A DNA stretch of 64,000 nucleotides from a virus (IMGVR_UViG_3300033073_001027:38114-102113), one strand, 5' to 3'. Counted from the first letter of the stretch, positions 1-21,550 are shown. Notes: a model not told the origin generated them from the sequence alone. Numbers and translations: made by a program.

Positions 1-82
1 TTACATCTGATGCACAGCAAAATTTCACTTCTCCATTTGTATTAAGAAAAAAAGAATCAAATGGATAAGAACACAAAGGCAT
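1..82 (-). CDS. 5' end of a further twitch/SPASM radical SAM protein (runs off window)
   Basis: Manual translation MPLCSYPFDSFFLNTNGEVKFCCASDV matches the N-terminal C-x2-P-[FW]...G-x-V-x2-CC motif of the neighbours; ATG overlaps the upstream TAA. Confidence 0.75.
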   Translation of the reverse strand, partial: MPLCSYPFDSFFLNTNGEVKFCCASDV

Positions 83-936
83 TAAAATCTCTCCAACAAT
101 TCACCATAAATTGTTTCGGATAATTCTACGTGCTTATCATATTTCGCATGCCCAAATCCGCAAACTGGATAACTCTCGGTGGTAAAATATTGTGCATTTT
201 TCAAACGTGATTGAAAATTCTCTGCTGTATTAATCATAGTTTCAGAAATATGTCCATCTATTTGCCCCTGCCCATACCAAGGAATCAACGCATCCCAAGA
301 AGTGGAAATTGTAAACCACACAATTCTGTTATTGTGCCGCGAGGATAATAGGTCCAAATATTTTAATTCTTGATAATACTTACATAACATATTCTTAGGA
401 TTCGCATATTGTAAAACATATTCCTCGTAAGATTTCTTATTCGGCCAGTTCCACCATTGAGCATTAAAATGACCATAGATTATATTGTGTTCTTCGCCAG
501 AATCATCAATCCAAAATTGTCTATTGGGAGCAGGCGCTCCAATTACAACAAGAGATTTATCTGTAATATTACCTGACAGCAAATCTTCTTCTAATTTGTG
601 TATCGAATATGCCAAACTAGATCCACCAAGACCACGATTAACCCAAGGAACATTAAATTTATCAGACAACCAGCGAGGCCATGCAAATTGTTCTTGGTAT
701 TCTCGAACTTTCTGTGCCACATGTTTTGGATCAGGGTTGATAAACCAAGCAGGATTACTACAATATTCTGGGGTAAAATATTTTGCATAAAAATCACCAG
801 TTCTGTGATTTGTATATTCTCGTTTAATTCTATCTACTTCTTGCTCTGACAACTTGTCTATAACAACATGATCCATCAGTTCCTCACCAGAAGTAAAACT
901 GCAACCATATGCAAAAATCTTATCAATTTGTATCAT
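82..936 (-). CDS. SGNH/GDSL hydrolase-like protein
   Basis: GCSFT block I, NRGLGGSS block II, C-terminal GH motif. Confidence 0.55.
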   Translation of the reverse strand: MIQIDKIFAYGCSFTSGEELMDHVVIDKLSEQEVDRIKREYTNHRTGDFYAKYFTPEYCSNPAWFINPDPKHVAQKVREYQEQFAWPRWLSDKFNVPWVNRGLGGSSLAYSIHKLEEDLLSGNITDKSLVVIGAPAPNRQFWIDDSGEEHNIIYGHFNAQWWNWPNKKSYEEYVLQYANPKNMLCKYYQELKYLDLLSSRHNNRIVWFTISTSWDALIPWYGQGQIDGHISETMINTAENFQSRLKNAQYFTTESYPVCGFGHAKYDKHVELSETIYGELLERF

Positions 937-945
937 TAATTCCTC

Positions 946-2133: not shown

Positions 2134-3334
2134 TAAATAAATCCTGGTATTCTGGAAACACTGAAAAGAAATCTTCGTTTCTAATTCTGTCGATAATTTG
2201 AATTTCTTCCAGCAATTCTGGTAATTGATGTGATCTATCTTCTGCCATCATATAATCTTTTAAATGATTAATTTGAGCAATACTGTTAGTTCTATCTGTC
2301 ATACTTACATTACCGACCAAATAAGTTTCTTCAATAAATGAATTGAATCTAACCAGAAGTTCTTCTTTGTATTTTGCGGGCAATACCTGAATACGCATAA
2401 ACTCTGGAGTTTGTATTGGATTTACCATCCATCCATTATCATCAATAAATCCAGAATTTATACAGTGTCGAATAAAATCTGTTAAATCATATGCATTAAA
2501 AACGCCAACAGTCGCGCTGATTTTCAACGAAATGTGAGGACATTCTCGTTTGATTGCTCGAATATTATCTTCAATCTCAGACCAGACAGTCCCCTTTCGC
2601 AAATACTCTCCTCGTTCTAGATAAGAATCTAGACTAGCCCAAACCTCAACAGTATCAAAATGATTCCAATATTCTAATACATTAATATTTTTGTAATTCA
2701 ATTTACTAAGATTAGTATTATATCTAAGGAGAACATTAGTTTTTTTGCGATCGATCAACTCTTGCAATATCATGTAATGTTGTTCCATGATAAGAGGTTC
2801 TCCTCCTGCAAAATATATTTCTTCAACATAATCAAAATGTGGATATATTTGTTCCCAAAGATCAATCTTTTGCGGAGAAGAAAACCAATCTTCACCCACC
2901 TTACCGAATCTTATTTTTGAATCAGAATGCCAACCTGAACTTAATTGCGGACCACAAGATCTACACTTAAAGTTACAAATATTACTGAAACGAAAATCCC
3001 AATAATACATTTTAAATTGATCTAACGACCCATCTTCATTTGTCATATTGAACAAATACTGTTTGTCTTTATTATATTCGTTCAATCTTGTTCGATTGCT
3101 GTTGCCCGAATGCTTTTCTTGTAAATAACAACGAGAACAGATCTCAGATTTTTCTCCGTTTAACATTTTTTTACGAAGAGTTTTCATTTGGTCATTATTC
3201 CATATCTCTTCTAATGTGGAATCTGCGAGATTCCCAACATCAAGATGATGTGATGTCATACAACAAGGTAAAACCTTATTGTTTGGCAACGTATGTAAAT
3301 GAATCCAAGGAGAAATACAAAGAGTATCAGACAT
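2123..3334 (-). CDS. Radical SAM/twitch protein
   Basis: CNFKCRSC, GGEPL; start reassigned to MSDTLC by paralog comparison. Confidence 0.9.
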   Translation of the reverse strand: MSDTLCISPWIHLHTLPNNKVLPCCMTSHHLDVGNLADSTLEEIWNNDQMKTLRKKMLNGEKSEICSRCYLQEKHSGNSNRTRLNEYNKDKQYLFNMTNEDGSLDQFKMYYWDFRFSNICNFKCRSCGPQLSSGWHSDSKIRFGKVGEDWFSSPQKIDLWEQIYPHFDYVEEIYFAGGEPLIMEQHYMILQELIDRKKTNVLLRYNTNLSKLNYKNINVLEYWNHFDTVEVWASLDSYLERGEYLRKGTVWSEIEDNIRAIKRECPHISLKISATVGVFNAYDLTDFIRHCINSGFIDDNGWMVNPIQTPEFMRIQVLPAKYKEELLVRFNSFIEETYLVGNVSMTDRTNSIAQINHLKDYMMAEDRSHQLPELLEEIQIIDRIRNEDFFSVFPEYQDLFNDQ

Positions 3335-4529
3335 AGCGGGATAGTTCCTCGAACCACTCAGGAAATGTTTGTTGGAAATCTTCATTGCGCAAATTGTCAA
3401 GTTTTTTTGTAATATCACTAAATTCAGAAAGTAAATTCTGATCTTTATTCATTGTCAAAAAATTAGTTACTGTTTGCTCTACTCGTTTGCCTTGAACTCG
3501 GGAGATAATTATATCCTTCAATGTTCTTGGTAAAATTCTGGGATCATAATATGCAGGATCGGTGACAAAATTTATAGAAATATTATTTGTATACTTGCTG
3601 AAATAGTCTTCAAACTCAGATAGGTAAAAAATATTAAAAATAGAAACTGTTTGTAGGACACTATAACTCAAGTTGCTATGCGTTTCACACAAATTACGAA
3701 TCCAGTCAAACGTTTCCATTACTGTATTCCATTTAGAAGGCCAACGGATATACTTATTTCGATCATACAAGTCATCAATAGAGAGCATAAATTGCACTCT
3801 TTTAAATTTTTTCCAAACATCATTATATTCTGTATTGATAATAGTAGTATTGGTAGAATAAATTATTTCGATGTGTTCAGAATCACCAGATTGAACTAAC
3901 GACTCTAGAAAATGTTTATGTTTGTCTATCAACAAAGGTTCACCACCATTGATATACAGTAACCTTAATGATTTTCTATGCACAAACAATTTATCCCAAA
4001 ACTCAGAATCCAAACACCAATTAAACTTGTTTTTATCTATGTTGGTAGGAGAGAATCCATGAATTGCTTCAAATGCGGGAAACCATCTACTGCTAGAATA
4101 AATGTTACAAGATCTACAAGCAAGATTGCAATGATTGCCCAATCTTAATTCCACCATCTCATAATTTACATCGACGCTTCCGTCCGCAGAGGTATCTTTT
4201 ATTGCGTCATCATAAGAGTATTCGAGTCTTTCCAATTCAAATTGCCGTTTACTTGTAATTCCAACACGTTCTTTATCGAAACACCGACTGCACTGCACAG
4301 GTTCCTGCCCCGCCAACATTTCCAAGCGGACTTTTTTAAAAGATTCGCTATTCTGAATTGGTTTAAAATCGTATTGCGTATTGTTTAACGTTCTATATTC
4401 AGGTTTCTCGAATTTATCAAATGCTTCTGACATTCTAGAATCGTGTCTTGCCTCACAACACAATGTAACTGAACCATGTGGATGCGTTGCAAGATGATTC
4501 CAGGGTAATGGACAAAATGTTTTACTCAT
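3327..4529 (-). CDS. Radical SAM/twitch protein
   Basis: CNLACRSC, GGEPL, N-terminal FCPLPW..CC. Confidence 0.9.
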   Translation of the reverse strand: MSKTFCPLPWNHLATHPHGSVTLCCEARHDSRMSEAFDKFEKPEYRTLNNTQYDFKPIQNSESFKKVRLEMLAGQEPVQCSRCFDKERVGITSKRQFELERLEYSYDDAIKDTSADGSVDVNYEMVELRLGNHCNLACRSCNIYSSSRWFPAFEAIHGFSPTNIDKNKFNWCLDSEFWDKLFVHRKSLRLLYINGGEPLLIDKHKHFLESLVQSGDSEHIEIIYSTNTTIINTEYNDVWKKFKRVQFMLSIDDLYDRNKYIRWPSKWNTVMETFDWIRNLCETHSNLSYSVLQTVSIFNIFYLSEFEDYFSKYTNNISINFVTDPAYYDPRILPRTLKDIIISRVQGKRVEQTVTNFLTMNKDQNLLSEFSDITKKLDNLRNEDFQQTFPEWFEELSRYV

Positions 4530-4535
4530 AAGTTT

Positions 4536-5852
4536 TTACTCATTAATAGAATCCCACCATACCTTAGCGTTGTCGGTCAAGCACTCTCGGAATGTTATAT
4601 CCTGAGTTCGCAATCTCTCTGTTGTTAATATGTTTTTTTTACCCTTTGATGCTGCTTGCCAATATTGTTCAGTCCATTCTTCCTGGAAAGTTTTTCTATT
4701 TAACAATTCTAACAACGTATGTTTATATATCATTGTTTTGTGCGTTAACTTCGGTTCAATGTATTGCAGAATATCGTGAATAATTTCTTCCAATATTTGT
4801 CGAGGTAGACACATTGGAGACATAAGAACAGAAGGGTCGAAGGCAAAGGTTACTTTTAAGTAAGTTTTAACGTCCAACTCGGTAACAACATCAAACAACT
4901 CTTTTAGATGAATCAATCCAGGAGTTGTTAACGTGACATCGAATACTATAGCATCGTCATTGTATAGATCAAGAAGAAACATTCCTTCTTTAAAATTATG
5001 CAACCACTTATCCCAGTCTAATCCTGTTCTGATATACTCTCCGACAGTTCCAACGCCATCTATGCTCGCACAGATATTTACATTCTTAAAATGCGGCAAG
5101 TATTCATATAGATTATGTTCTTTGTAGGATATTCTACTTAGATTGGTATTATATCGAACAACCACATCCTTACTTTTACCAGTATCAACCAGTTGTTTCA
5201 TTATCGACCAATGTCGTTCCCACATCAAGGGTTCACCGCCAACCCAATAGATTTCTTCGATGATTCCAGAATCAACTGCAGATTGTAATTCTGTTTCTAG
5301 GACTTCCTTTTGGAAATTTCTAATTTTTTCTCTGTTTGCAGGTTGCAACCAAGGATTGCCAGCGTAATCCACTAGATCGTTCTTTACTTTCTCAGTTTCC
5401 CAAGAAGAACTTAATTGCTCACCGCACATTCGACATTTAAAATTGCAAAGATTAGATATTCTATAGTCATAGGAAACAGGAGATAAGGTCGTATATCCTG
5501 TTTCGTCTGTAGATTCTAAAATCTCATCTATCTTGTGCGGAAATAAAGTTTCTGTAAAGTATTTTTTATATGTGTGCAGATTTAATATTTGATTATTACA
5601 AACATCGCATTGTGAAATTTTCTCACCAGAAAGAATTCGCTTTCGAATATCTTTCATATACTCGCTGTTCCAGTGTTCTTCCAGACTCTTCGGCGAAAAC
5701 TCTTGCACTTGTTCTCCCCCAGGAGCATCAATATACTGCCTCTGGAATTCAGGAGTCTCTCTGCTTGCACAGCAAAGTCTGCGCTCCCCCTGCGGACTGA
5801 CGAATGTGTGAGTCCAAGGGGCAACGCAGAAGTATTCTGAAACTTTAGTCAT
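4536..5852 (-). CDS. Radical SAM/twitch protein
   Basis: CNFKCRMC, GGEPL, N-terminal FCVAPW..CC. Confidence 0.9.
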   Translation of the reverse strand: MTKVSEYFCVAPWTHTFVSPQGERRLCCASRETPEFQRQYIDAPGGEQVQEFSPKSLEEHWNSEYMKDIRKRILSGEKISQCDVCNNQILNLHTYKKYFTETLFPHKIDEILESTDETGYTTLSPVSYDYRISNLCNFKCRMCGEQLSSSWETEKVKNDLVDYAGNPWLQPANREKIRNFQKEVLETELQSAVDSGIIEEIYWVGGEPLMWERHWSIMKQLVDTGKSKDVVVRYNTNLSRISYKEHNLYEYLPHFKNVNICASIDGVGTVGEYIRTGLDWDKWLHNFKEGMFLLDLYNDDAIVFDVTLTTPGLIHLKELFDVVTELDVKTYLKVTFAFDPSVLMSPMCLPRQILEEIIHDILQYIEPKLTHKTMIYKHTLLELLNRKTFQEEWTEQYWQAASKGKKNILTTERLRTQDITFRECLTDNAKVWWDSINE

Positions 5853-7362
5853 ACTTTGCTAAAGGTTCGTCGATATTTTTACTATCTGGATTCAGAATCC
5901 AACCTTCTTCTTTAGCGATACGAAGCAAGTCTTCATCGTCTAGATACTGAACAGTGCTATCACCATTGATCAGTTCTGTTCTCTTATTCAAACGTGTATC
6001 AGGAATTGTCTCATACCACTCTCGCAAAATATTTGGGAATGTATCAAGCAAGTTTTTTTCTCTGCGCTGATCATATTGACTGTAGAAAGTTTTAAAGTCT
6101 CTCCACAGAGTCATCTTGTTACTCGTTCTACGATGTGGCGCATCAACAATTTCAAGATAATCAATCAGACGTTCAATACTGGCACGTTCAAATGAATGCC
6201 ACAATGGTCTATCCTTCGCGATGTTCCACCAGTCCTGTAGTTTCTCTCTACAATAATTCTTCAAGTGATCTGGTAGGGCGAGAGGACTCTGGAAACTCGG
6301 AAACCGCAGGATGTTCAGACTCAACGAAGGGTCTTTACATTGACTTATTTCCTTGATGTTATACATATCCTCCATAAACTCAGTTATGTTAAACAAACAT
6401 AGACTGTTAATAGTCATCATGATGTGGACCTGTTTTACATCAGGAGAAAACACCAGACGCTCGATATTCTTGCGCCAAGTCTTCCACTCAAACCCGTCGC
6501 GAATGTATTCTGCATGCGCATGAGTCGTTTCGCAACTTGTATAGACATGAAATTCCTTGATAGACTTCGCCTTCTCAAGAAGTTTATCGATGATGGCATC
6601 TTTAGCAATAAGGTTGCTATTGACAGCAAAACGCATATTGTTATCTGGGTTTTCTTCGAACCAGTCAAAGAGTTTCCAAGTTTCAGGACTCATTAGCGGT
6701 TCGCCGCCTGTAATTCTAAGTTCTTCTAGACTGCCAGACAGTCCACTGTTCCACCACTTCCAAAAAGCAGTGATGTATGGATTTTCCTCATCTCTGGAAA
6801 ATGGTTCAGTCCAAGATCCATCTTGTTCGAAGGCACCTGCGCCATCAGAAACTAGATTCTGATACGGTCCATTGTTTTTAATGTCTCGTGCCCAAGAAGT
6901 GGAGAAACTTGCATTACAATATGAGCATGCTAAATTGCAAGTTCGATCGAATGCAATCTCAAATGTTTTCAGATTAACGTCATCTTTCCAATTCATTTCT
7001 TGAATGACTTTGAGTTCTTCATCGGTATAGATCACTGACTTGAATACTCTATCGCTAACAGCATCAACACCCATATCTTCTATACGCCAGCAGTATTCAC
7101 ACTCACGAGGTCTGTCACCCTCTTGCATCATTTTACGCATTGCCTTTTTGTGCATGGTATTATGAATCGCTGTAGGATTATTTTCGATTTCCTCGAGAGG
7201 AATTTTATGTGCTGGCGGGTGATGACAACTGGCAGTAGTTCCACTACCTAACCAAGTAGTCGCATTAAACCACTTCGCGCCACAGAAACTCTTAGACTTA
7301 GTATCAAGAACTCTTTTTCGATAATCAATTAGAGTTTCATCACCTTGCGGACCTTTGCTCAT
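5845..7362 (-). CDS. Radical SAM/twitch protein, SCHHP subfamily
   Basis: CNLACSYC, TGGEPL, FCGAKW..SCHHP, CEYCW. Confidence 0.9.
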   Translation of the reverse strand: MSKGPQGDETLIDYRKRVLDTKSKSFCGAKWFNATTWLGSGTTASCHHPPAHKIPLEEIENNPTAIHNTMHKKAMRKMMQEGDRPRECEYCWRIEDMGVDAVSDRVFKSVIYTDEELKVIQEMNWKDDVNLKTFEIAFDRTCNLACSYCNASFSTSWARDIKNNGPYQNLVSDGAGAFEQDGSWTEPFSRDEENPYITAFWKWWNSGLSGSLEELRITGGEPLMSPETWKLFDWFEENPDNNMRFAVNSNLIAKDAIIDKLLEKAKSIKEFHVYTSCETTHAHAEYIRDGFEWKTWRKNIERLVFSPDVKQVHIMMTINSLCLFNITEFMEDMYNIKEISQCKDPSLSLNILRFPSFQSPLALPDHLKNYCREKLQDWWNIAKDRPLWHSFERASIERLIDYLEIVDAPHRRTSNKMTLWRDFKTFYSQYDQRREKNLLDTFPNILREWYETIPDTRLNKRTELINGDSTVQYLDDEDLLRIAKEEGWILNPDSKNIDEPLAKYD

Positions 7363-8744
7363 TTCCACTCCTCAATTAAATGTGTATATTCGGGGAAAGT
7401 TTCTGCGAAGTTCTTTCCTCTGCGCTTATCGTATTCATTGACAAACTTAACGAAATCTGCTCTATACTTGTCTTGTGTTGGTTCAGTTCGCAGATAATCA
7501 CAGAACCTTTGTATTTGATCGAACTCTTCCAGATATAATCTGGCATGGTGAGAAGGAGAATGATATTTTAACCATCCTCTGCAATATTCTTCAATTTGAT
7601 CGGCGTACATATCTCGTGTTGCTTTATCGAGCATAGTTGCCTGAAGGTGAACAGGATATCGCAAGTAATTAACACTAAGAGGAATCATATTCTCTTCAGT
7701 AAACTTGTTGAAGAATACTCTGAGTTCCATCAATTCTTCAATAAACTTAGTAAATGTTGGAAGACTGAGAATATTGATTGTTGTCATAATAGTCACTCTG
7801 GACTTGGTCATGTTCAGAATTTTTTGAACATTATTATGCCAATCTCTATAATTTAAACCATCTCTAGCATATTCTGCCTGTTTACCATAACTTTCTATAC
7901 TGGTATAGATGTCGATCTGCTTCACACTATATTCGAGATCATTAATATCTGCAATCAATCTGTCAATCAATTCAGGAGAAGAACCCAAGTTAGTATTAAC
8001 TGCCAGTTCTAAGTTTGGTTGTGGATTCTTCTTGATCATCTCCATAGTCTGCCAGAAATCCTTACTCATGGTCGGTTCTCCGCCAGTCATGCGGAACACC
8101 CTAAGATACTTCAATGCTTCTGGAAACCAAATTTTAAATGCTTCGGAGTAAGGATTGTGTTCACTGTTTTTATATGGAAACCGTCCTGCTTCCTTCAACC
8201 AATCAAGATGATGTGCACTAAACGTCGTTGGATATGGACCATTCTGCTTAATATCTTCCATCCATTTGCTAGAAATTTCAGGAGAACAATACGCACAAGC
8301 AAAATTGCAAGCATTAGAAAATGAAACTTCTAGATATGTAGGATACACGTTTTGATCCCACGGATGAGAAGATAATTCTTCTACCTTATCAAACGACCAA
8401 TGTTCTGCTGTTTTGTAATGTCGATCCGAAAAATAGTCTTTACCGAGATCTTCAATTTTCCAACAGTATTCACACTCGCGAGGTCTTTGCCCCTCTAACA
8501 TAAGTTGACGTTGTTTTTTCTTGTGTTCGCTGTTGTGCAGAGACGAAACATCATTTTCAATCTCTGACAGGGGAATTTTATGCGGCGATGGATGGTGGCA
8601 AGAATGATTGAATCCATTTTGCAAATACAATGTAGTTTGTAACCATTTTGCGGCGCAAAATGTAGGGCTGATTGTATTCATCACATCGCGTTTGCGCTTC
8701 AGTTCTTCAATTCTTGCTTCATTTGTTCCAGTATTAACGTTCAT
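7359..8744 (-). CDS. Radical SAM/twitch protein, SCHHP subfamily
   Basis: CNFACAYC, TGGEP, FCAAKW..SCHHP, CEYCW. Confidence 0.9.
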   Translation of the reverse strand: MNVNTGTNEARIEELKRKRDVMNTISPTFCAAKWLQTTLYLQNGFNHSCHHPSPHKIPLSEIENDVSSLHNSEHKKKQRQLMLEGQRPRECEYCWKIEDLGKDYFSDRHYKTAEHWSFDKVEELSSHPWDQNVYPTYLEVSFSNACNFACAYCSPEISSKWMEDIKQNGPYPTTFSAHHLDWLKEAGRFPYKNSEHNPYSEAFKIWFPEALKYLRVFRMTGGEPTMSKDFWQTMEMIKKNPQPNLELAVNTNLGSSPELIDRLIADINDLEYSVKQIDIYTSIESYGKQAEYARDGLNYRDWHNNVQKILNMTKSRVTIMTTINILSLPTFTKFIEELMELRVFFNKFTEENMIPLSVNYLRYPVHLQATMLDKATRDMYADQIEEYCRGWLKYHSPSHHARLYLEEFDQIQRFCDYLRTEPTQDKYRADFVKFVNEYDKRRGKNFAETFPEYTHLIEEWK

Positions 8745-10057
8745 AATGTTTTACACCACTCTAAAAATTCTTTAAATTCAGGAAATGTCTCTATCAAATT
8801 AGTTCCACTGCGAAGATCGTACTCGGGAAAGAACTTGGCAAATTCTTTACGAGCACGCAGACGGTATTCTTCTGTGACTGCATGTGAGTCTTGATAAAAA
8901 TATTCACGAACTCGTTCCATTTTACCGATTTCTATTTTACTGAATCCATTATGATTCATAAACTCAACATCTCGATCTATATATACTCCGAACTCTCTCG
9001 GTAGAATATTCATTGTCCAGTGTGGAGGTTCTTTAAGATGTGGGATGTCAATCAGAATACGTTCACCCCATTTTGCTCTAAGTTCTACAATCAACTGTAG
9101 GAAGTCTTTAAAGTATGGAACAGTCAGAACATTATACGTTGTCATAAAACTCAGATACGCTGTTGGCACCGTTTCTAGAACAGTATTTACGTTCTCGAGA
9201 AACAGTTCGTAGTTTAGACCACGACGAATATACTCTGCTTGCTTACCTGTGCATTCGAGACTCGTAAACAATCGCAAATTCTTGATGTGCTTTGCTTCAA
9301 TCAAACCCTGCACACGTTCGCAAAAATCTTTAACTTTACGAGTTGTAACACCAAGGTTGGTATTGATCTGTAAAAATAATTCTGGGTTACCATCTTCCTT
9401 TAACATATCCAGCAACTTAAATGTGTTTGTTGTCATCAGAGGTTCGCCACCAGTGATGCGGAAGATCTTCAAATCGTTCTTCAGATCAGGCCACCATTTC
9501 CAAAATGCTTCGACGTATGGATTGTATTCTTTTTCAGAATAAATTTTGCCATGCACACCATATGGACTATTTGAAATATCATAATCCCCAAATTGAGATA
9601 TTTCCTCCTGCCACATCGAAGAAAACGTAGAACAACAATATCCGCACTTGAAGTTACAAGCATTGCTGAAACTAATTTCCATGTTATAAGGATTTACGTC
9701 TTGATCCCATGGAGTATTGCGAAGTAGTTCCGTCTCTTCGTCTAACACAAATAGATTATTAATGCTGTCCGTATTTTTATATACTCGGTCGCTAGTTTTA
9801 TCTAAATCTTCTATGCTCCAGCAATATGAACATTCACTAGGTCTGCCACCTTCAAGCATATTTTTACGCTGTTGTTTTTCATGAGATGTATTGTGGAGGG
9901 CAGAAGGATTACTTTTAATTTCCTCCTGTGGGATATATAGAGGAGGTGGATGATGACAACTGTGTTTCTCCCCAGAGTGAAGATAAAGCGCAAGCCATCT
10001 CCACTTCTGGGGGCAAAACCCAGCACCAACAGAATCCAGTTTTTCTTTTACATTCAA
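8741..10057 (-). CDS. Radical SAM/twitch protein, SCHHP subfamily
   Basis: CNFKCGYC, TGGEPL, FCPQKW..SCHHP, CSYCW. Confidence 0.9.
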   Translation of the reverse strand: MNVKEKLDSVGAGFCPQKWRWLALYLHSGEKHSCHHPPPLYIPQEEIKSNPSALHNTSHEKQQRKNMLEGGRPSECSYCWSIEDLDKTSDRVYKNTDSINNLFVLDEETELLRNTPWDQDVNPYNMEISFSNACNFKCGYCCSTFSSMWQEEISQFGDYDISNSPYGVHGKIYSEKEYNPYVEAFWKWWPDLKNDLKIFRITGGEPLMTTNTFKLLDMLKEDGNPELFLQINTNLGVTTRKVKDFCERVQGLIEAKHIKNLRLFTSLECTGKQAEYIRRGLNYELFLENVNTVLETVPTAYLSFMTTYNVLTVPYFKDFLQLIVELRAKWGERILIDIPHLKEPPHWTMNILPREFGVYIDRDVEFMNHNGFSKIEIGKMERVREYFYQDSHAVTEEYRLRARKEFAKFFPEYDLRSGTNLIETFPEFKEFLEWCKTL

Positions 10058-11472: not shown

Positions 11473-13518
11473 TTACTTGGACGTTGCTCTATACACGCCA
11501 TCCCAACCCTCAGTTGGTTTCTTAGATAGTTCTTCGATTCGTTCGACCATCATATCGTAATAAGAAGTTAACTCTCCTTGCCACTGGTCTTTAAGATCGG
11601 TGGCAAACTTTTTAGCACGGATCCAATCACCAGTACGATAAGCATGGAGGAACTTGAGATGCTCGTGCCCGAGTTTCACATTAAGTTCTGTGTCAAGAAC
11701 AGTGTAGATTGATACTGGTTCAGTCTTACCCTTAACAGCGACCAAGTCTAGTTCTACTGCTTGGTAGGTTCCATCGGCGAGGACTGCTTGTGCGGTTTTT
11801 GGACCAATAACGATCTTAACCCCATAAGGTTTTGATTGTCCTTCAAGTCGGGAAGCCAGATTAACGCCATCACCAAGGCAGGTATAATCAAAACGCTGAT
11901 CGCTGCCCATATTACCAACCACAACGGTGTCAGTGTTAATCCCAAGACCCATACCAAAGGGTGGAACACCTTCTTTTTCAACTTCAGCATTGAATGCCTC
12001 CAAGTCTTTCAGCATTGCAAGTCCAGTACGAACTGCATTCATAGCATGATCTTTATCATCTAACGGTGCATTCCAGAAGGCCATCTGGGCATCACCAATA
12101 TATTTGTCAAGAGTGCCTTCGTTCTCGATAATACGAGCAGTCATGGCAGTCATGTAGCGATTCATAATTTTAGTTAGACCCTGAACGTCTTTACCATAGT
12201 GCTCAGAGATAGTTGTAAATCCGCGAACGTCAGTAAACATAATTGACAGTTCTCTTGATTCACCACCAAGCGCAAGCAGTTCTGGATTCTTCTGGAGTTT
12301 CTCGACCATTGCGGGTGACAGATATGTACCGAATTGCTTCTTGATCTGTTGCTTCTGGAGGAATTCGCTGATAAACTTGACCGTATAGATGTGCATGTAG
12401 ATAATAGCAATTGCGATGATATTAAATGTCACATCGAACAGAATATGCTGTTCTTTGAAGAGATATACTGGCAAATAAAAATATCCAGCGAGAATTGCGC
12501 AAATATAAATTATAGAGAACCGAAAACGAGAGAGAACGATCAATGCAAGAGCAAGACCCAGAAAAGCAGCAAGATCCGCAACTGTTGACCAGTTCGGAAT
12601 CGCAACAGAATCTCCATTTATCAGAGTTTCAAGTATACTCGCCTGAAGGTCGTGGGGATATTGGGCACCTGATGGAGTCGCTACAGGATTCGCTACCCCA
12701 GCAGCAGTTACGCCTAATACGACAATCTTACCAGAAAGATCAGGAAGTTTCTCGCCTATCTCAAACGTTTGAAATTTATAATTTGGATTAATGAACACTC
12801 GACCATATTCATCGGTCTTAATGGTATCGAATTGAGGAACACGTAATGCTTCAACACCAGTCTGATTTATCTTTGCTTGATACGAAGAGTCTCCTGCAGC
12901 TACACGCAGCATCTCTATCCCAAATGCAGGATAGTATTCGCCTTTTGATTGAGATAGAAGAGGAACTCTACGTACAACCCCATCAGACTCGGGTAGTGTC
13001 GACGTTATCCCTACACCGACGGCAGCTTCTTGCAGAACTGGAATATTACTTAGAACGCATGGGTATTGAGGAAGAAATTCAGTCGGTTGTCCGTCGCCGA
13101 CGACAGCAACTCCAGTCCGAGCAATATTCTGCACCCCCTTACATGAATCAGTTGTTGTCTGACTCAGGACTACTGGGTAATTAGATAGTGCACTTGCCAA
13201 TACAGCGTCAGTGCCCATGCGATCAGGCTCAGGCATAAGTACAGTGCTACCGACAAGAGCAGCCCCTCTACTATAAATGTCCTCAATAATTTTAGCATGG
13301 ACTTCGCGTGGGAAAGGCCACTGACCATATTCTTCAATTGCTTTCTCCCCGATATTTACGGTAACAATTTGTTCGGATTGTTTGGGTGAACCCAACATCA
13401 AATAGTCATAAAATTTCATTCTGGTTGCTTCAACCAGATACGGATCAGAGAGTTTTACCGCCAAAAGAATACCAAAGGTAAATAACGCCAACCATGGCGA
13501 AAGTAAAACTTTTTTCAT
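11473..13518 (-). CDS. CHASE2-domain class III adenylate cyclase
   Basis: N-terminal TM; CHASE2 (GQWPFPR, DGVVRRVPL); 3 TMs; cyclase motifs FTDVRGFT, DKYIGDA, DYTCLGDGVNLASRLE. Confidence 0.93.
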   Translation of the reverse strand: MKKVLLSPWLALFTFGILLAVKLSDPYLVEATRMKFYDYLMLGSPKQSEQIVTVNIGEKAIEEYGQWPFPREVHAKIIEDIYSRGAALVGSTVLMPEPDRMGTDAVLASALSNYPVVLSQTTTDSCKGVQNIARTGVAVVGDGQPTEFLPQYPCVLSNIPVLQEAAVGVGITSTLPESDGVVRRVPLLSQSKGEYYPAFGIEMLRVAAGDSSYQAKINQTGVEALRVPQFDTIKTDEYGRVFINPNYKFQTFEIGEKLPDLSGKIVVLGVTAAGVANPVATPSGAQYPHDLQASILETLINGDSVAIPNWSTVADLAAFLGLALALIVLSRFRFSIIYICAILAGYFYLPVYLFKEQHILFDVTFNIIAIAIIYMHIYTVKFISEFLQKQQIKKQFGTYLSPAMVEKLQKNPELLALGGESRELSIMFTDVRGFTTISEHYGKDVQGLTKIMNRYMTAMTARIIENEGTLDKYIGDAQMAFWNAPLDDKDHAMNAVRTGLAMLKDLEAFNAEVEKEGVPPFGMGLGINTDTVVVGNMGSDQRFDYTCLGDGVNLASRLEGQSKPYGVKIVIGPKTAQAVLADGTYQAVELDLVAVKGKTEPVSIYTVLDTELNVKLGHEHLKFLHAYRTGDWIRAKKFATDLKDQWQGELTSYYDMMVERIEELSKKPTEGWDGVYRATSK

Positions 13519-14072
13519 TGCGTCAATTCTTTCCATTCTTCTGGGGTGATTTCTCGTTTAGTTGCAAGTAAATTTTCATAATGTATATATTCTGTTTCTA
13601 AATCATTTTCAGAATACACATCATTTTTTACATAAACTTTTGATTCGCTTTTGGTATTTGTGGTAATTGTTCTGTTGTCAGTTGGTATATACTCAGATAA
13701 TCTATCAAAATTAATATAACAAAAATCAAGATAATTTTGACGCCATTGACCTGTTTCAATATCATAGTGCACAAAATTCATAGTATTACCATAACATATA
13801 TATTTTAAGAATGGTCTGGAATGCTCGATAAATTGCTGTCTAGCATGTTCATCATATATTATACTATTACATCCAAATCTTTTATATGCAGAAATTAATC
13901 GTTGGTACGGATTGCGCAACACAACAATTCTAAGATTTTTTGTAGTTTGCCAAATATTAAATGATTCCGCAACACAAGTATATACGGGAATATTAAAATA
14001 CCCATACATACTTGTATGACCGCATCTTGTTGCAGAATAAACACACATTTTACCATTATCATAAACAAACAT
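13515..14072 (-). CDS. Sulfotransferase family 2-like protein
   Basis: RCGHTS and LRNPYQRLISAY resemble the PAPS-binding motifs; paralog at 34538. Confidence 0.55.
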   Translation of the reverse strand: MFVYDNGKMCVYSATRCGHTSMYGYFNIPVYTCVAESFNIWQTTKNLRIVVLRNPYQRLISAYKRFGCNSIIYDEHARQQFIEHSRPFLKYICYGNTMNFVHYDIETGQWRQNYLDFCYINFDRLSEYIPTDNRTITTNTKSESKVYVKNDVYSENDLETEYIHYENLLATKREITPEEWKELTQ

Positions 14073-14074
14073 AA

Positions 14075-15529
14075 TTAATTCTTCGTATAAGAGTATCCAT
14101 TACATGGTCCAGTCGTACATGTTATTTCCATTTTTGCAGAGTCTGCGGCAGTCAAGTTATTTTGCGAAACTGTCACACCAATACCTGCATTATTTAATAT
14201 AAGTTGAAATTGTTTAGCAGAAGAACCAATTTGAGATACTGTAGCAGAAACTCCACCAAATGGCGCATCAATCTGTAAGAAATGGTTTCCCAATCCTTCT
14301 TGCAACGCACTGATATTATTAGAATTTCCTAACGCATTGATAAACAACGATTTTCCGTTTGCGTCTTTTTGTTGTGCAGAAATCTGATTGCCAAGACCAT
14401 TGGTTACAATCTCAGCATACTTGCTACCATGCTGTTGCGTCAGCGATATAATATTGTTGTTACCAGTCACCGAAACTTCTGCCAAATTTTTACCGATTGG
14501 TGTTGTCGCAGTCCCTTGATTAATTGTAATACTGTTACCACTACCATTGATCAACATTGCTTGTGCACCATTAACACCGCGAATCTGATTCTGTTTAGAA
14601 AACTGTTCAATATAAACTGAATTATTAGATCCAGTTGCATTAATGTAGATAGAGTTTTGCGTAATTGCATTAGTCTGATTGATCTTTAGTGATTGACTCG
14701 CACTAATTGCAGCAGCAGGATATGTTGGTTCTACAGGTCCAGGAGTCGGAGGTGGCGGGGCAGAAGATCCCGCATTTGGTTGAACTGGTGTGAATGTCGC
14801 ACCATTCAGCAACGTTGTACCTTGCATCTGGTCAATGAAAAGAATTGGCGACAAAGCAGTATCACCAAGATTGAATGAAGCAAATCCTAATGTGTAGTTA
14901 CCATCAGTAGGAACAGTAAATACCGCAACTTGCCAACCAGTGGCACCATACGAGTTAGTAGAGTAGTTACCAGTGCCAGTATTAGTAAAACCTAACAGAG
15001 CAAAGTTTTGTGTCTGTCCATTGATAGTTGGTGTTCCTGGTCCGCCAGTCAAAGTAATCAGAGAACCATCATTGTATGGCATGTAGTCTGTTGAAACATA
15101 CTGCCAAGCAAACGTATAAGTAACCCCTGCTTGTAGCGTTACTGTTCTACTGATAGATGACGCATTAGTCGGCCACATGTTACCATTAGAATAGATCGTA
15201 TTTTTAATTGATGTAATCGCTGAACCAGCAAGACCAAGAGTGGTCATAGCATTATCAAAGGTTGGCGAACCACCCCCTGCTTGAACAGCGACCATGTATG
15301 ATCCGTATGGTGTAACTGTCCAGCACTTACCGCCACCAGGACAATAGTTTTGCATTCCAGATGTTACTTGAACACCAGCGCCGTTTGGACTCCAAGAAGT
15401 GCGAAGTGTAGTTGATCCGTTACTTACTGTCCAACCAGTATAATTCCCGTTCTCAAACCCGTAGTTTGCAACCTGCGCAAAAGATGGGAAAGAGAAGAAC
15501 AGAAGAAATAGAGCGATTAATTTTTTCAT
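14075..15529 (-). CDS. Secreted protein: beta-rich N-domain, Pro linker, C-terminal curlin-like repeats
   Basis: Signal peptide; NYGFENG start; PPPPTPGP linker; repeated [IV]xQxGxxN units. Confidence 0.7.
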   Translation of the reverse strand: MKKLIALFLLFFSFPSFAQVANYGFENGNYTGWTVSNGSTTLRTSWSPNGAGVQVTSGMQNYCPGGGKCWTVTPYGSYMVAVQAGGGSPTFDNAMTTLGLAGSAITSIKNTIYSNGNMWPTNASSISRTVTLQAGVTYTFAWQYVSTDYMPYNDGSLITLTGGPGTPTINGQTQNFALLGFTNTGTGNYSTNSYGATGWQVAVFTVPTDGNYTLGFASFNLGDTALSPILFIDQMQGTTLLNGATFTPVQPNAGSSAPPPPTPGPVEPTYPAAAISASQSLKINQTNAITQNSIYINATGSNNSVYIEQFSKQNQIRGVNGAQAMLINGSGNSITINQGTATTPIGKNLAEVSVTGNNNIISLTQQHGSKYAEIVTNGLGNQISAQQKDANGKSLFINALGNSNNISALQEGLGNHFLQIDAPFGGVSATVSQIGSSAKQFQLILNNAGIGVTVSQNNLTAADSAKMEITCTTGPCNGYSYTKN

Positions 15530-16665
15530 CTCTGCCCTGTCTCCTGAATAACAGTGATGTTACCTTGCGGTCTACCAGTACCAGATGTTGTCCATTTATC
15601 ATCCATAAAGTTGTAAACATCAACCAATCCATTTTGCACGGAAACTAACTGCAGTTCTGTAGATTTTTCCATCCACACAGTGATTGCTTGTTGTTTATCT
15701 TCCGAGAGACGAGTATAAACCCAACCAACCTGCACATTCTTTTTGAATGTTGGAGAAACGTTAGTATAAATCGTTTCTGCTGGTCTATTTCCCTCGTTGA
15801 ATTCTTGATAAACTTCAATCAACTCTTGCGGAGTTGCTTGTCGAATCATAACAGCAGCAACCTGTTCGACATTGTCTGTAGTTCCTGCGTCAGGATCTTT
15901 ATTGTCATCTCCTGCTGCTCTTGCTGGGTTTGTGAATTTCTTGAGTGTTTCTCTAGCAACCTGCAGCAAACTTTGACCGTCGTCTGTTTCCAGAGGAACA
16001 ATCTGAACACTGTTGTCTAGTGTCTTCATCAAAGGATTAATTACCACTGGTGGAGAAGGTGGGGCATAAGAATTCTCAACAACAGTTGCTTGGAATGCTT
16101 TTGTAAGAGAAACAACTCCAGACGCAGTGATAACATCGATCGCACCATTAGGACAATCTGCTGTTTGTTTTGTAATATCTAATTCATTATAGCATTCGGG
16201 AACAAGCACGACCGTCGAACGACCTGCTTCATCAACCGACATAACGAAGTCTGTGCCACGAACTGCGATGGTTGCAGTAGGTGTGCGAATATTTACGCCT
16301 TTCGCGTTACCGTGCGCGATGGCACCTGAGGTGTATCTGACAGTGCCGAGTGCGACTCGTAACCCGAGTTTGCCTTTCGACTTCCCTCCGCCATCATAAA
16401 CAAAGTCATCGATAAGAAGTTTAGAGTTTTCTGTAATATTGACCGTAGTTGCATCATTGAATGTAATCCTAAATCTTCCCTGAGAGTTGGTGGACACCGT
16501 GTCCATTTTTTCAACACCAGAACCCTTCGCGGCAGGTGCTGCTTTCACCCCACGTTTAATTTGCCCACCACCCTTAGCATCGGTGATCGACCCGATTGAT
16601 GCCATCGCAGGGGTCGATACCAATAGTAAAAGATTAATGGCCAGTTTTAATATTGAACGTGCCAT
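15526..16665 (-). CDS. FecR-domain exported protein
   Basis: Signal peptide; ITFNDATTVNITENS, IRTPTATIAVRGTDF. Confidence 0.85.
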   Translation of the reverse strand: MARSILKLAINLLLLVSTPAMASIGSITDAKGGGQIKRGVKAAPAAKGSGVEKMDTVSTNSQGRFRITFNDATTVNITENSKLLIDDFVYDGGGKSKGKLGLRVALGTVRYTSGAIAHGNAKGVNIRTPTATIAVRGTDFVMSVDEAGRSTVVLVPECYNELDITKQTADCPNGAIDVITASGVVSLTKAFQATVVENSYAPPSPPVVINPLMKTLDNSVQIVPLETDDGQSLLQVARETLKKFTNPARAAGDDNKDPDAGTTDNVEQVAAVMIRQATPQELIEVYQEFNEGNRPAETIYTNVSPTFKKNVQVGWVYTRLSEDKQQAITVWMEKSTELQLVSVQNGLVDVYNFMDDKWTTSGTGRPQGNITVIQETGQR

Positions 16666-17395
16666 TTGAACCTGTGCTGTTAATGTTTATAACAGTTTCG
16701 GAAACACCATATTGTTGTGTTGTTACAGTGTTTAGAGAACCTGTTAGATTCACATACAGCGAGTGACCAAATGTTCCACCAGTGCCTGTTTGTGTAATAT
16801 CAAAGTCGTTGTAGTTACCAGTCACAAGTAGAGTCTGCGATGCATTAGGAGATAATGCATCAATGTTAAATGTGTTGTTATTACCAGAGATATCCATCGA
16901 GTTGCGGATATTGGCACCCGAACCATGGAACACAATCGAGTTTGAATTACCAGTAAACTTAGCATTCATGTCAAGTTGATTACACAACGAATCTGTCTGC
17001 AGAGTTCCGCAGCGAATATCTGCAGAGTTTAGATCGCCAAGTTGACGAATTGTTACTGTTGCGATTCCTTGGGCCCCAGTGTTGGAAACAATTCCCATGT
17101 AGAGAGTGTTTCCGTTACCTGTCTGAATACCAATGACGCTTTGGTTGTCCCCACGTAGATAGATAGGATCAACAGCGGAACCAATAATATTGGCAGTACC
17201 AGTTTGAACAATGTTAACATCTACATTGCCTCCTTGCTGATCGATATATACCTTATTTGTAGTTGCCACTGCATTAGCGTCAGTTTCGTTAGGTGAAGTT
17301 GTGACGATTGCTGGTGGAGTTGGTGCTGTTGGCAGAACTGTCTGAGCGAACGCAGAAGTTGAAACGAACAGCAAACCTAGTGCGAATTTCTTCAT
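16634..17395 (-). CDS. Curlin-like (CsgA/CsgB-type) repeat protein
   Basis: Signal peptide; QTGTAN, QTGNGN, QLGDLN, SGNNN, TGNYN repeats; next to csgG. Confidence 0.7.
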   Translation of the reverse strand: MKKFALGLLFVSTSAFAQTVLPTAPTPPAIVTTSPNETDANAVATTNKVYIDQQGGNVDVNIVQTGTANIIGSAVDPIYLRGDNQSVIGIQTGNGNTLYMGIVSNTGAQGIATVTIRQLGDLNSADIRCGTLQTDSLCNQLDMNAKFTGNSNSIVFHGSGANIRNSMDISGNNNTFNIDALSPNASQTLLVTGNYNDFDITQTGTGGTFGHSLYVNLTGSLNTVTTQQYGVSETVININSTGSNGTFNIKTGH

Positions 17396-18210
17396 TTAGA
17401 TTGCTCCTGTTTTTGCTTAAATCTCCATAGATTTTTTCTTTCACCATCCTTGATCACCTCAACAACGGCCGTTTCTATGGCAGAACGGATAGCATAACTA
17501 CCTGCTTCATTACTTGTTTGTTGTCCATCGAACTCAAATGCTTTCGTGTCCATATCGAAGAACTTGAAAGCAGTGATACCTTCAGAAGTCGAGAGAACTG
17601 TTTTCTCAACTGTAACTGAAGTCAGCACCTCGCCAGTCTGGACAGATACTAGACGAATACTAATCGTAACTTGGTCTTGCGCATATTGCTGGTATGGACC
17701 GATGCCAAGGAAACGAGCACCTGTTCCTCCAGTTTTAATGTTCGAATTATAGTCAATGATGCCACCCTCAAGAATGATACCTGCAACTTTTAGTGGCGGT
17801 AGAGGTTCAGCACTTTCACCAGCAATTTGTTCACGCATCTGGCGAACAAGTTGACGTTCTTTAATGAGTGAATCGATTCCAACACGCTCAACAGGAACAA
17901 ACCACTTACCATCGCCTGTATCTTGTAGAGTTTTAATCAGATATGCGTCAGCACCCTGAGTTACTGCTGTTGAGAAACTTGCTAATGTCGATGATGGTTT
18001 ACGTTGCCCTGTTCTATCAGTAAATGCATATAGAGCGATAGGAATAGGTTGACCGTCTAACTCTGGTAGATTCTTGAATAATTTTGGATTCGCGAATCTT
18101 TTGACTTCTGCATCTTCTCTGAACAAATAGGATTGATTGGTGGCAGGATGAAGCGCACCAACGCACCCTGAAGTTGCGAGCAGAAGCGGAAGGAGAATTA
18201 ACTTTTTCAT
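17392..18210 (-). CDS. csgG: Curli secretion channel CsgG
   Basis: Lipobox ATSGC; FTDRTGQRKP, STAVTQG, WFVPVER, LIKERQLVR, LEGGIIDY. Confidence 0.92.
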   Translation of the reverse strand: MKKLILLPLLLATSGCVGALHPATNQSYLFREDAEVKRFANPKLFKNLPELDGQPIPIALYAFTDRTGQRKPSSTLASFSTAVTQGADAYLIKTLQDTGDGKWFVPVERVGIDSLIKERQLVRQMREQIAGESAEPLPPLKVAGIILEGGIIDYNSNIKTGGTGARFLGIGPYQQYAQDQVTISIRLVSVQTGEVLTSVTVEKTVLSTSEGITAFKFFDMDTKAFEFDGQQTSNEAGSYAIRSAIETAVVEVIKDGERKNLWRFKQKQEQSK

Positions 18211-18219
18211 ATATCCTCC

Positions 18220-18666
18220 TTAGAATGCGAATGTAGCAATAGGAACAGTAACAACCGTAGTGTTACCATTCTTATCGACAACTGTTAGAGTCACATCAGT
18301 ATTGCTCTTGACATAAGAAATCTTATTTCCGTCAAGATTAAAAGTTCCTGCTCTCGCCTCAGAACCCTCAGCAAACAGATTGTTTGAAAGTTGTGTAGCA
18401 AGTTGGGCATAAACCTGTGAGGTGAACAGTGCCATAAACTTTGCTAGTGGTGTATTTGATGCCTCTGCCTTTGCCAGCGCAATCTTTGCTGCTTCCGCAT
18501 CTTTAATTGCTTGAGTACGCGAACGTTCTTGGGCATCAATTGATTGAACGTGCGATGACCACCCATAACCATTGAAGGAAGGTGATTTAAAGGACTGGAC
18601 TATAGGGTCTGCGAATGCTGGACTACTTAGACTTAGTAGCAGGAGCATCGTCGCTCGTTTTAGCAT
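18220..18666 (-). CDS. csgF: Curli assembly protein CsgF-like
   Basis: Signal peptide followed by FKSPSFNGYG (CsgF F-x-[NS]-P-x-F-x-G); adjacent to csgG. Confidence 0.75.
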   Translation of the reverse strand: MLKRATMLLLLSLSSPAFADPIVQSFKSPSFNGYGWSSHVQSIDAQERSRTQAIKDAEAAKIALAKAEASNTPLAKFMALFTSQVYAQLATQLSNNLFAEGSEARAGTFNLDGNKISYVKSNTDVTLTVVDKNGNTTVVTVPIATFAF

Positions 18667-18754
18667 CTTTCTCTTCCTTTATTTTTTTATTTGAAGAAAA
18701 ATCTAATTCAAGCGTAAATACTTTAAGGATCTCAATTTTTAGTCTTAATGTCAT
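18623..18754 (-). CDS. Possible 43-aa ORF bridging the operon gap
   Basis: MTLRLKIEILKVFTLELDFSS...; overlaps both neighbours. Confidence 0.35.
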   Translation of the reverse strand: MTLRLKIEILKVFTLELDFSSNKKIKEEKDAKTSDDAPATKSK

Positions 18755-18998
18755 CACTATGATCCTCTTTTATTTGCAATACAACACTCACCTTCTGATT
18801 TAATCTAATAAGATCGTTATCTAACATGCGAATTCTATCAATTAGTGCGATCAAAATTACATTTGTCTCACCAATCAACGGCATTAATTTATCTGTAACA
18901 AATTTGTAAATAAACCAAACAAAATATCCCATGCCAACTGCGGCGACAATAGGAAATCCGTACTGTTTAACAAACGAAACTATCAATTCGGGATCCAT
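18732..18998 (-). CDS. Small single-TM protein (YvrJ-like GFPI motif)
   Basis: YGFPIVAA TM plus helical tail; paralog of next gene. Confidence 0.75.
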   Translation of the reverse strand: MDPELIVSFVKQYGFPIVAAVGMGYFVWFIYKFVTDKLMPLIGETNVILIALIDRIRMLDNDLIRLNQKVSVVLQIKEDHSDDIKTKN

Positions 18999-19285
18999 TA
19001 GTCCCTCCTTGCGTCGTTCTTCCCGTCTGCTCTTGCGATTCTATCTAAGTCTGGTTTCAGACCCAAAGCGGAACTAACAACAGCATCAACGCGAATAATA
19101 TCATGGTTCATGGTTTTCACACGGTTGTCCAACCCCATAATAATACCCTGCATTCCCTTGATCGCCTTAACAACGCTCTCAAGAATGTAGTTGATGACAA
19201 AATACACGAAAACGCCACCGAGCAATGCTGCCGCGATGGGAAATCCTACATCTCCAATAAGTTTAAAAATTGCATCGTAACTCAT
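18998..19285 (-). CDS. Small single-TM protein (YvrJ-like GFPI motif)
   Basis: VGFPIAAA TM; LDNRVKTMNHDIIR parallels LIDRIRMLDNDLIR. Confidence 0.75.
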   Translation of the reverse strand: MSYDAIFKLIGDVGFPIAAALLGGVFVYFVINYILESVVKAIKGMQGIIMGLDNRVKTMNHDIIRVDAVVSSALGLKPDLDRIARADGKNDARRD

Positions 19286-19290
19286 GCATT

Positions 19291-19298
19291 TATTTATA
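19291..19298 (-). promoter_or_regulatory. T4-type late promoter
   Basis: TATAAATA 5 nt upstream of ATG 19285. Confidence 0.75.
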
Positions 19299-20431: not shown

Positions 20432-21550
20432 TCAGCGAATAATATCAATCTTTTCGATCGTTTCGGGCGACCAAATTTCTAAATTTTGACGCAAACGTCC
20501 GTCCGAACGCAAAGTTTCGTATCTTGAGGACGCTTTTTTCTTCCACCAGCGAATAATATTCTCAGAATAGTGCTTGTCAAAGTTTTCAGGACTCTTAATT
20601 AGCGTTTTATCGGTTCCGAGGATGTAATTTTTAGAATTTTCGTATCCGTAAGTCGAAATATAGAATCTTTTTTGCGTTGTAACGTCTTTGTTCGCCTGAA
20701 TTGCGTTCGAAAACTCCTTCAAGAGTTCGGATTCGTAATATTTTAGCGAATTTTTGATAACTGCCATCATTTTGTTTTGCATTTTCAACTTGTAGGAGGC
20801 AATTCCCTCTCTACCAAACAAAGGTTGACCATTATTCTTACTTGCAAACCAATTCATCGTCTCTTCCCAGAAATCATCCGAGAATGCAAGCACAAAATTG
20901 CTTACTGTATCACCAGTGTAGCGAATAAACGGTTTTAGTCCGTCGTATTGCGACGCTTGTTTGATATTTCCGTAAAGAGATGTTGTTTCAAAAAGACAAG
21001 TTTCCATGTCATATTTCTTATTGAACATTTCACGGAACTCATGAGAAGCGCAAAGAAGTGCACAAAGTTTACCACCAAGGTAGTTGAACCCAAACGGTTG
21101 CGCAGGGACGATAATGAACCCCATAACTGCATGCTTGTTGAAAGATCGTAAATCTGGAACGCGACCAAACCAATCATTACGAGGTTTAGAATTAATGAGA
21201 GGACTGGCGACTCGACAAAATCCAACATATTTTCCTGTGTTCTTTTCTCTTACAATGAATTTAATCTCCTTCCCGAACGAATTCTCATTACAGAAAGACG
21301 AGGTGATCTCGACCATCGTTGAAAATTCGCTCGGGGAGGGTTCGAAGATCTCAAACTCCATATCTTCAGGATGCATATCGAAATCCGAGAACAACATGTG
21401 TTCTGGTTCACAACCTGGAAGAGTTGCAGGAAGAGACTTCAAACGTTCTAACTTCTTCATGCGCATGTGGTCATCGATTCGACCATAGTTTGACATATAG
21501 TCAATGAATCGACGACCAATATATTCTGCGTCTTGTTTTTCTAATAGCAT
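20432..21550 (-). CDS. DUF4338/DruA-like protein
   Basis: PAQPFGFNYLGGKLCALLCAS, ETTSLYG, SQYDG. Confidence 0.7.
   Translation of the reverse strand: MLLEKQDAEYIGRRFIDYMSNYGRIDDHMRMKKLERLKSLPATLPGCEPEHMLFSDFDMHPEDMEFEIFEPSPSEFSTMVEITSSFCNENSFGKEIKFIVREKNTGKYVGFCRVASPLINSKPRNDWFGRVPDLRSFNKHAVMGFIIVPAQPFGFNYLGGKLCALLCASHEFREMFNKKYDMETCLFETTSLYGNIKQASQYDGLKPFIRYTGDTVSNFVLAFSDDFWEETMNWFASKNNGQPLFGREGIASYKLKMQNKMMAVIKNSLKYYESELLKEFSNAIQANKDVTTQKRFYISTYGYENSKNYILGTDKTLIKSPENFDKHYSENIIRWWKKKASSRYETLRSDGRLRQNLEIWSPETIEKIDIIR

Follow-up and report, generated by a model that had tools for sequence, protein, structure and literature searches.

A viral curli secretion module with a secreted FecR-domain protein and a CHASE2 adenylate cyclase in an uncultured T4-like myophage

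Curli secretion genes of phages were first reported in pelagimyophages, as the pair csgF/csgG (Zaragoza-Solas et al., 2020; PMC7029224), and were also found in the OM43 phage Melnitz, for which a lysis-timing secretin/pinholin pore was proposed (Buchholz et al., 2022; PMC9004378). Wittmers et al. (2022, mSystems; PMC9599517) subsequently described the full viral type VIII secretion system (T8SS, curli) module, in which one or two small "HK" genes, FecR, an adenylate cyclase and a second curlin are included. It occurs in HTVC023P-type podophages as well as in myophages, has alphaproteobacterial affinities, was detected at every one of the 65 GOV2 stations, and was also seen in metatranscriptomes. 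Here, we analyze a 64,000-nucleotide stretch of viral DNA (IMGVR_UViG_3300033073_001027:38114-102113, hereafter the window) that encodes, on its minus strand, two small membrane paralogs (sm1 and sm2), CsgF, CsgG, a curlin-like protein (cur1), a FecR-domain protein, a second curlin-like protein (cur2), a sulfotransferase-like protein and an adenylate cyclase with a CHASE2 sensor domain. Judged by its gene content and order, this cluster belongs to the published viral module and is carried by an uncultured T4-like myophage; homologs of gp33, gp59, gp32 and baseplate proteins are encoded in the contig outside the window. The term CHASE2 occurs 0 times in the text of Wittmers et al., which also does not name a bacterial FecR-CHASE2 pairing. 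Our additions to the published work are the identification of the sensor as CHASE2, the FecR-CHASE2 pairs of bacteria, a cassette in Caulobacteraceae, the conserved late promoter motif TATAAATA and the sporadic occurrence of the sulfotransferase-like gene.

The order of small gene(s), CsgF, CsgG, CsgA/B-like protein, FecR, second CsgA/B-like protein and adenylate cyclase is shared between the viral T8SS module and the window. As the original prediction had stated, CsgE, CsgC and GerE/CsgD-type proteins are without a match in the 102-kb contig around the window, which represents only ~59% of a genome; all three are missing from the viral module as well, and alphaproteobacterial curli systems likewise do without them (PMC9599517). 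The gene order of the window recurs in Melnitz and HTVC008M, whose cyclases are ~40% identical to that of the window. The order sm1, sm2, csgF, csgG, cur1, FecR, (cur2), cyclase is constant in 50 IMG/VR loci wherever the contig is long enough. Co-conservation of FecR and cyclase with the csg genes, the lack of which the original prediction had named as a refutation, therefore holds in these 50 loci, in Melnitz, in HTVC008M and in two bacterial metagenome-assembled genomes (MAGs). A megablast search with the operon region retrieved no near-identical phage from the phage collection. In a quick tree search of the cyclases, rooted at the midpoint, the curli-linked cyclases form a single clade (Shimodaira-Hasegawa-like approximate likelihood ratio test, SH-aLRT, 100), within which the window's clade and the MAG pair are sister groups (99) and the marine phages make up the other branch. 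The window thus differs from the published module in its separate cyclase clade, and also in its GC content (~41%), in the position of the operon ~20 kb from gp32 rather than adjacent to it, and in the addition of a sulfotransferase-like gene and of a large passenger on the second curlin.

The co-directional run of nine genes was confirmed. All nine open reading frames (ORFs) lie on the minus strand from 19285 to 11473 at the coordinates originally claimed, and no overlap or gap between neighbors exceeds 65 nt (Table 1). At the head of the operon sm1 and sm2 overlap by 1 nt, sm2 and csgF are 65 nt apart, and 9 nt separate csgF from csgG. The overlaps in the middle are 4 nt (csgG/cur1), 32 nt (cur1/FecR) and 4 nt (FecR/cur2); at the end, a 2-nt gap follows cur2 and the sulfotransferase-like gene overlaps the cyclase gene by 22 nt. 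Scanning the minus strand of the operon for internal terminators gave none that was convincing. Based on hydropathy and reading of the sequences, CsgF, cur1, cur2 and FecR have cleavable signal peptides and CsgG has a lipobox.

Table 1. Features of the curli-FecR-CHASE2 operon, in order of transcription (positions are those of the window).
Feature	Position	Strand	Evidence and description
T4-type late promoter motif TATAAATA	19291..19298	-	5 nt ahead of the first ATG (sm1)
sm1, 95 aa	18998..19285	-	phrog_18771 1.8e-29; one N-terminal transmembrane segment, GFPIAAA motif; C-terminal helix ending DARRD
sm2, 88 aa, sm1 paralog	18732..18998	-	phrog_18771 2.7e-31; GFPIVAA; IDRIRMLDNDLIRL helix
CsgF homolog	18220..18666	-	Pfam CsgF 5.9e-17 (62.5 bits vs cut-off 25.8); phrog_35372; signal peptide
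CsgG outer-membrane lipoprotein channel	17392..18210	-	Pfam CsgG 1.4e-51; lipobox-like TSG/C
cur1, secreted curlin-like repeat protein, 253 aa	16634..17395	-	Curlin_rpt 2.5e-4; signal peptide; N/G/T-rich repeats
Secreted FecR-domain protein	15526..16665	-	Pfam FecR 3.7e-12; signal peptide PAMA/SIG
cur2, secreted fusion, 484 aa	14075..15529	-	~240-aa beta-rich passenger, Pro-rich linker, C-terminal curlin-like repeats
Sulfotransferase-like protein, small, 185 aa	13515..14072	-	Sulfotransfer_2 4.8e-5 (24 bits vs cut-off 22); no signal peptide, cytoplasmic
CHASE2 class III (IIIb-type) adenylate cyclase, 687 aa	11473..13536	-	CHASE2 1.4e-37; Guanylate_cyc 8.7e-19; phrog_35576 1.6e-236

The FecR-domain protein was modeled with AlphaFold2 (pLDDT 79.5), giving a confident domain at ~23-250, a disordered linker and a small C-terminal beta domain. 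In this predicted structure, the FecR domain resembles the PupR CCSSD (6ovk; Z 14.7, rmsd 2.8 over 136 residues) and BDI_1681 (4m0n; Z 13.7), so the likeness to the FecR/PupR anti-sigma regulators is in the fold of the periplasmic domain. Where those regulators have a cytoplasmic anti-sigma domain and a transmembrane (TM) anchor, the phage protein begins with a cleavable signal peptide, and neither element is found by hydropathy, in the sequence or in the model. Since both are missing, we conclude from the sequence that it is not an anti-sigma factor. The phage operon also differs from such regulators in having neither an extracytoplasmic function (ECF) sigma factor nor a TonB-dependent transducer. 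Related FecR proteins are abundant: 4,588 were recovered among 8,000 candidates scored, and a representative library contains 12,657 FecR-domain representatives at E <= 0.001. As a separate observation, residues 21-118 of the model superpose on the plug domain RIN of a Marinomonas RTX adhesin (5ix9; Z 7.0, in the ambiguous range, rmsd 2.3, 74/76 residues, 24% identity), a periplasmic domain located under an outer-membrane channel.

The cyclase is anchored by TM1 (9-30), which is followed by the periplasmic CHASE2 domain (~31-315; the Pfam match spans residues 30-333), three TM segments (316-389), the cytoplasmic catalytic domain (~420-615) and a C-terminal extension. Among proteins of solved structure, bacterial adenylate cyclases are its best relatives, for example CyaB (3r5g) at 7.4e-31. 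Alignment to solved cyclases and relatives places the metal-binding residues at D436 and D482, the substrate-binding residues at K478 and T552, and the transition-state residues at N559 and R563. Thr552 occupies the position at which an adenine-specifying Asp would be aligned, with D550 two residues earlier. We take the Lys478/Thr552 pair to be that of class IIIb in the classification of Linder and Schultz. The cyclase of a marine relative (L051) has a Lys/Asp pair and a Ser replacing the Asn. Complex prediction for the CHASE2 periplasmic domain (31-318) and mature FecR (23-379), both with alignments, returned an ipSAE of 0.00 in both runs; it was made without controls and counts neither for nor against binding.

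We then examined whether CHASE2 and FecR occur together in prokaryotes. A CHASE2 alignment used to scan prokaryotic genomes, one for each species, yielded 59 loci, several of which, on contigs labeled as MAGs, are mis-binned phage; 49 are genuinely bacterial. A FecR-domain gene is located no more than 1.4 kb from the CHASE2 gene in 28 of the 49, and nearly all of these FecR proteins have a signal peptide. Their mature N-termini resemble that of the phage FecR ("IG.V/I" type), and the paired loci include alphaproteobacterial and betaproteobacterial ones. As in the phage, the gene for the secreted FecR directly adjoins the TM-CHASE2-TM-cyclase gene, although some of the bacterial FecR partners are 700-1800 aa long and, in contrast to the phage operon, neither CsgG nor CsgF is encoded within 10 kb of CHASE2 at any of the 49 bacterial loci (nor at 14 further alphaproteobacterial loci). 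A pairing of FecR-domain protein and CHASE2 cyclase has been noted in Campylobacterota (PMC9239204), where phosphodiesterase and TPR partners are reported that the phage operon does not have. The 28 curli-free loci and the Campylobacterota pairs indicate that FecR-CHASE2 is independent of curli, and secreted FecR plus CHASE2 would thus be a bacterial signaling pair in its own right.

Two freshwater Caulobacteraceae MAGs (L055 and L056) contain csgF, csgG, two curlins, FecR and the CHASE2 cyclase in bacterial surroundings. The sole block common to the two contigs (L055:6100-12054 and L056:6116-12054) is ~6 kb long and 87% identical, and the flanks are unrelated. The GC content of the cassette is 52%, compared with 55-65% in the flanks, and only one of 301 sampled genomes of the order, the query genome itself, has a close homolog of the MAG FecR protein. 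Based on the shared block with unrelated flanks, the low GC and the single cyclase clade, we conclude that the six-gene cassette from csgF to cyclase travels between phages and bacteria in one piece. In L056, a gene for a Metallophos phosphoesterase is located just upstream of the cassette, outside the shared block.

We tentatively propose, with doubt and confidence close to balance, that this is a curli module in which FecR links secretion to the CHASE2 cyclase, with cyclic AMP (cAMP) following an envelope or secretion cue. Late in infection, a CsgG/CsgF channel would be assembled in the outer membrane of the host and would export two curlin-like subunits, one of them bearing a passenger domain. 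In the periplasm, the secreted FecR protein may act as an adaptor that connects the CHASE2 sensor with the secretion apparatus or its substrates, using the fold with which anti-sigma regulators grip an outer-membrane partner, and the cAMP made in the infected cell would then follow the state of the envelope or of secretion. FecR is common to two associations, with CHASE2 in bacteria without curli and with secretion genes even in the absence of the cyclase, and its role as the link is the simplest reading of this distribution. Domain architecture, topology, a complete catalytic set and linkage at the level of the cassette are all observed, and the coupling of secretion to cAMP through FecR is plausible. 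A precedent for a relay from the outer membrane to CHASE2 is provided by Sinorhizobium meliloti, where the outer-membrane protein NsrA is required for signal perception by the CHASE2 cyclases CyaD1, CyaD2 and CyaK. These are also CHASE2 class III cyclases on a trans-envelope route to cAMP; there, the signal is a plant or ribosomal protein, the readout is the regulator Clr, and curli genes play no part. Beyond the proposed coupling, the cassette could be a self-contained trans-envelope sensor, in which the secretion state, or contact between the displayed passenger and another cell, is passed through FecR and CHASE2 to cAMP, and this signal, jointly with the phage-only sm1 and sm2, sets lysis timing or superinfection behavior; we regard this more ambitious version as improbable. 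The module is very common in aquatic phages and provides the host with a secretion system that it otherwise lacks. The FecR-CHASE2 pair and the mobile six-gene block replace vague regulatory neighbors with a concrete, testable wiring diagram, and the cassette provides an entry point to the question of what CHASE2 domains sense.

The FecR and CHASE2 genes found without curli in 28 bacterial loci and in Campylobacterota, and the viral curli regions from which the cyclase is missing, would also fit two independent functions that travel together: a surface fiber or pore made by the curli genes and serving in aggregation, superinfection exclusion or "sibling capture", and a self-contained FecR/CHASE2 environmental sensor, like that of bacteria, that resets host cAMP and takes no input from secretion. 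We consider this rather unlikely, because exactly the same six genes move jointly across unrelated bacterial contexts and phage lineages, and because FecR is encoded between the two curlin genes and is retained in viral clusters without cyclase. Its position between the curlin genes could instead mean that FecR is a periplasmic curlin chaperone or gate with no signaling role, a stand-in for the CsgE or CsgC not found in the contig. A PupR-like fold would suit such a function, as it presumably binds its partner via a beta-sheet-rich domain (we rely here on the title of entry 6ovk and on established knowledge). However, close homologs adjoin CHASE2 sensors in bacteria without curli genes, and a chaperone without a part in signaling seems to us quite unlikely. 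Repurposing of the CsgG/CsgF pore for lysis timing, a hypothesis published for Melnitz (PMC9004378), would make sm1 and sm2 a holin/antiholin-like pair and cAMP a means of tuning the timing. The late promoter motif is consistent with this, as are the phage-specific distribution of the single-TM paralogs sm1 and sm2, which are not in the bacterial cassette of the Caulobacteraceae MAGs, and their weak likeness to a holin family (phrog_4898, E 0.006-0.007). Those matches are far below significance, however; both curlin-type substrates are intact and would be needless for a mere pore, and CsgG is an outer-membrane channel rather than a hole in the cytoplasmic membrane. We therefore judge the lysis pore very unlikely.

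Several points weigh against the FecR-mediated coupling that we favor, or against the claims originally made for it. The cluster, including FecR and cyclase, was published in 2022 (Wittmers et al.) and is therefore not a new system. No neighboring FecR gene was found at 21 of the 49 bacterial CHASE2 loci, so the FecR-CHASE2 pairing is not obligatory. In viral curli regions of podophages, the cyclase is sometimes absent and FecR is kept (Wittmers et al., 2022; PMC9599517), which implies that secretion can operate in the absence of the cyclase. The constriction residues Y51/N55/F56 of E. coli CsgG are S/S/F in the phage protein, a difference at two of three positions that retains the Phe ring alone, and the identity of cur2 as a curlin is based on weak profile matches. 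Clumping was not seen in Melnitz-infected cells (Buchholz et al., 2022; PMC9004378). No protein that binds cyclic nucleoside monophosphates (cNMP) was found in the partial 102-kb contig, and the reader of cAMP is therefore probably encoded by the host. The original description of the cyclase was correct in both metal Asp residues, the Lys and the Asn/Arg pair; the substrate pair, given as Lys/Asp, is the IIIb-type Lys478/Thr552, and the Thr at the adenine-specifying position shows that detail to be wrong. The conclusion drawn from it stands, in that the residues predict an ATP-specific and catalytically complete enzyme. Finally, an interaction of FecR with the sensor, the direction of signaling, the formation of a fiber and an effect on infection are what we infer from this arrangement, and the "complete relay" of the original prediction has the same footing.

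Compared with the curli systems of E. coli and Alphaproteobacteria, the likeness consists of an alignment to E. coli CsgG over its full length (1.3e-47), the Pfam match of CsgF and the secreted repeat subunits. Apart from the CsgG constriction, the phage system differs in its highly divergent curlin repeats, in the passenger on one subunit, and in being carried by a lytic phage whose known host groups are without curli. The Curlin_rpt score of cur1 (21.3 bits) is barely over the cut-off of 20.7, and its match to CsgB is weak. For cur2, the Curlin_rpt match is weak and below the cut-off (E 0.054, 13.9 bits); its 210 C-terminal residues consist of N/Q/G-rich repeats that cross-match a profile of cur1 derived from the viral loci. 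Across loci, the length of cur2 varies between 111 and 486 aa, and some loci lack the gene. An AlphaFold2 model of its passenger, built on a shallow alignment of 8 rows, was unusable (pLDDT 47), and the CBM_4_9, DUF642 and Cleaved_Adhesin families retrieved from Atlas, which score 0.79-0.84, are leads only. The NCBIfam family NF038132 was rejected for cur2, as the match is weak and far below the cut-off.

The original prediction had placed two GFPI membrane paralogs at the head of the operon, and this is borne out by the assignment of sm1 and sm2 to the same PHROG family (phrog_18771) and by their aligned GFPI motif. Both lack a signal peptide and have a single TM segment, at the N-terminus; neither has a match in Pfam or NCBIfam. 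Only viral clusters were returned by an Atlas search for sm1. The two proteins represent two orthologous groups that are conserved as far as marine phages, and among close loci sm1 is 93-99% identical. One locus (L048:1015-6565) is a mosaic, with sm1 and sm2 96% and 89% identical to those of the window, CsgF, CsgG and FecR just 41-49% and the cyclase 60% identical. This drop in identity after sm2 points to a recombination boundary at the junction of sm2 and csgF.

The start of the operon at a T4 late promoter, also part of the original prediction, is supported by the position of the motif. In 32 of 46 related loci, TATAAATA occurs as a rule at the same distance from the first small gene, and the sequence farther upstream is divergent. 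This conservation amid differing upstream sequence argues for function. By number the motif is at chance level in the window (3 found vs 2.86 expected). The gp33 homolog encoded elsewhere in the contig is a late coactivator. In most loci of the window's clade, the five nucleotides between TATAAATA and the ATG leave no space for a ribosome-binding site, and this short spacing hints that the first cistron (sm1) may be leaderless or nearly so; in Melnitz, the late motif overlaps the annotated ATG. Sigma-70 promoter-like sites are not in excess over shuffled sequences (24 found vs 23.8).

The sulfotransferase-like gene is not found in the Melnitz or HTVC008M operons. Among ~40 viral loci that span the junction of cur2 and cyclase, just two others (L014 and L031) have it at this position, and other relatives have a sulfotransferase paralog outside the operon. 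In environmental contigs, position 13513 is joined directly to 14075, skipping the gene. Its rarity at this junction and the direct joins identify it as an optional, sporadic insert and not part of the core, and in the mechanism proposed above it would be an optional passenger. Some relatives, among them L014, encode two sulfotransferase-like paralogs (L014:731-1246 and L014:9933-10430), one in the operon and one upstream beside other enzyme genes. Both have RCGHTS and RNP..R..S-type motifs, which we take to be the expected binding sites for 3'-phosphoadenosine 5'-phosphosulfate (PAPS).

The labels of matching sequencing runs are aquatic, freshwater, soil and seawater, most of which contribute small shares. 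Short contigs from two RNA libraries (one freshwater, one riverine) are 85-99% alike and span most of the operon genes. Such contigs are uninformative on transcription, strand and starts, and DNA carry-over is possible, so they were not counted as evidence of expression; bins without cover, for example at the sulfotransferase-like gene, prove nothing alone.

Other genes of the window include a 372-aa protein encoded two genes upstream of the operon (20432-21550, minus strand), which belongs to phrog_19197 and has a Druantia DruA-like domain (PF14236, 1.8e-12). This gene has its own TATAAATA at 20428-20421. Downstream of the operon, at least seven radical-SAM-like genes form an array (82-10057, minus strand). 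Finally, 24 tRNA genes are clustered at 42314-53002, all on the minus strand.

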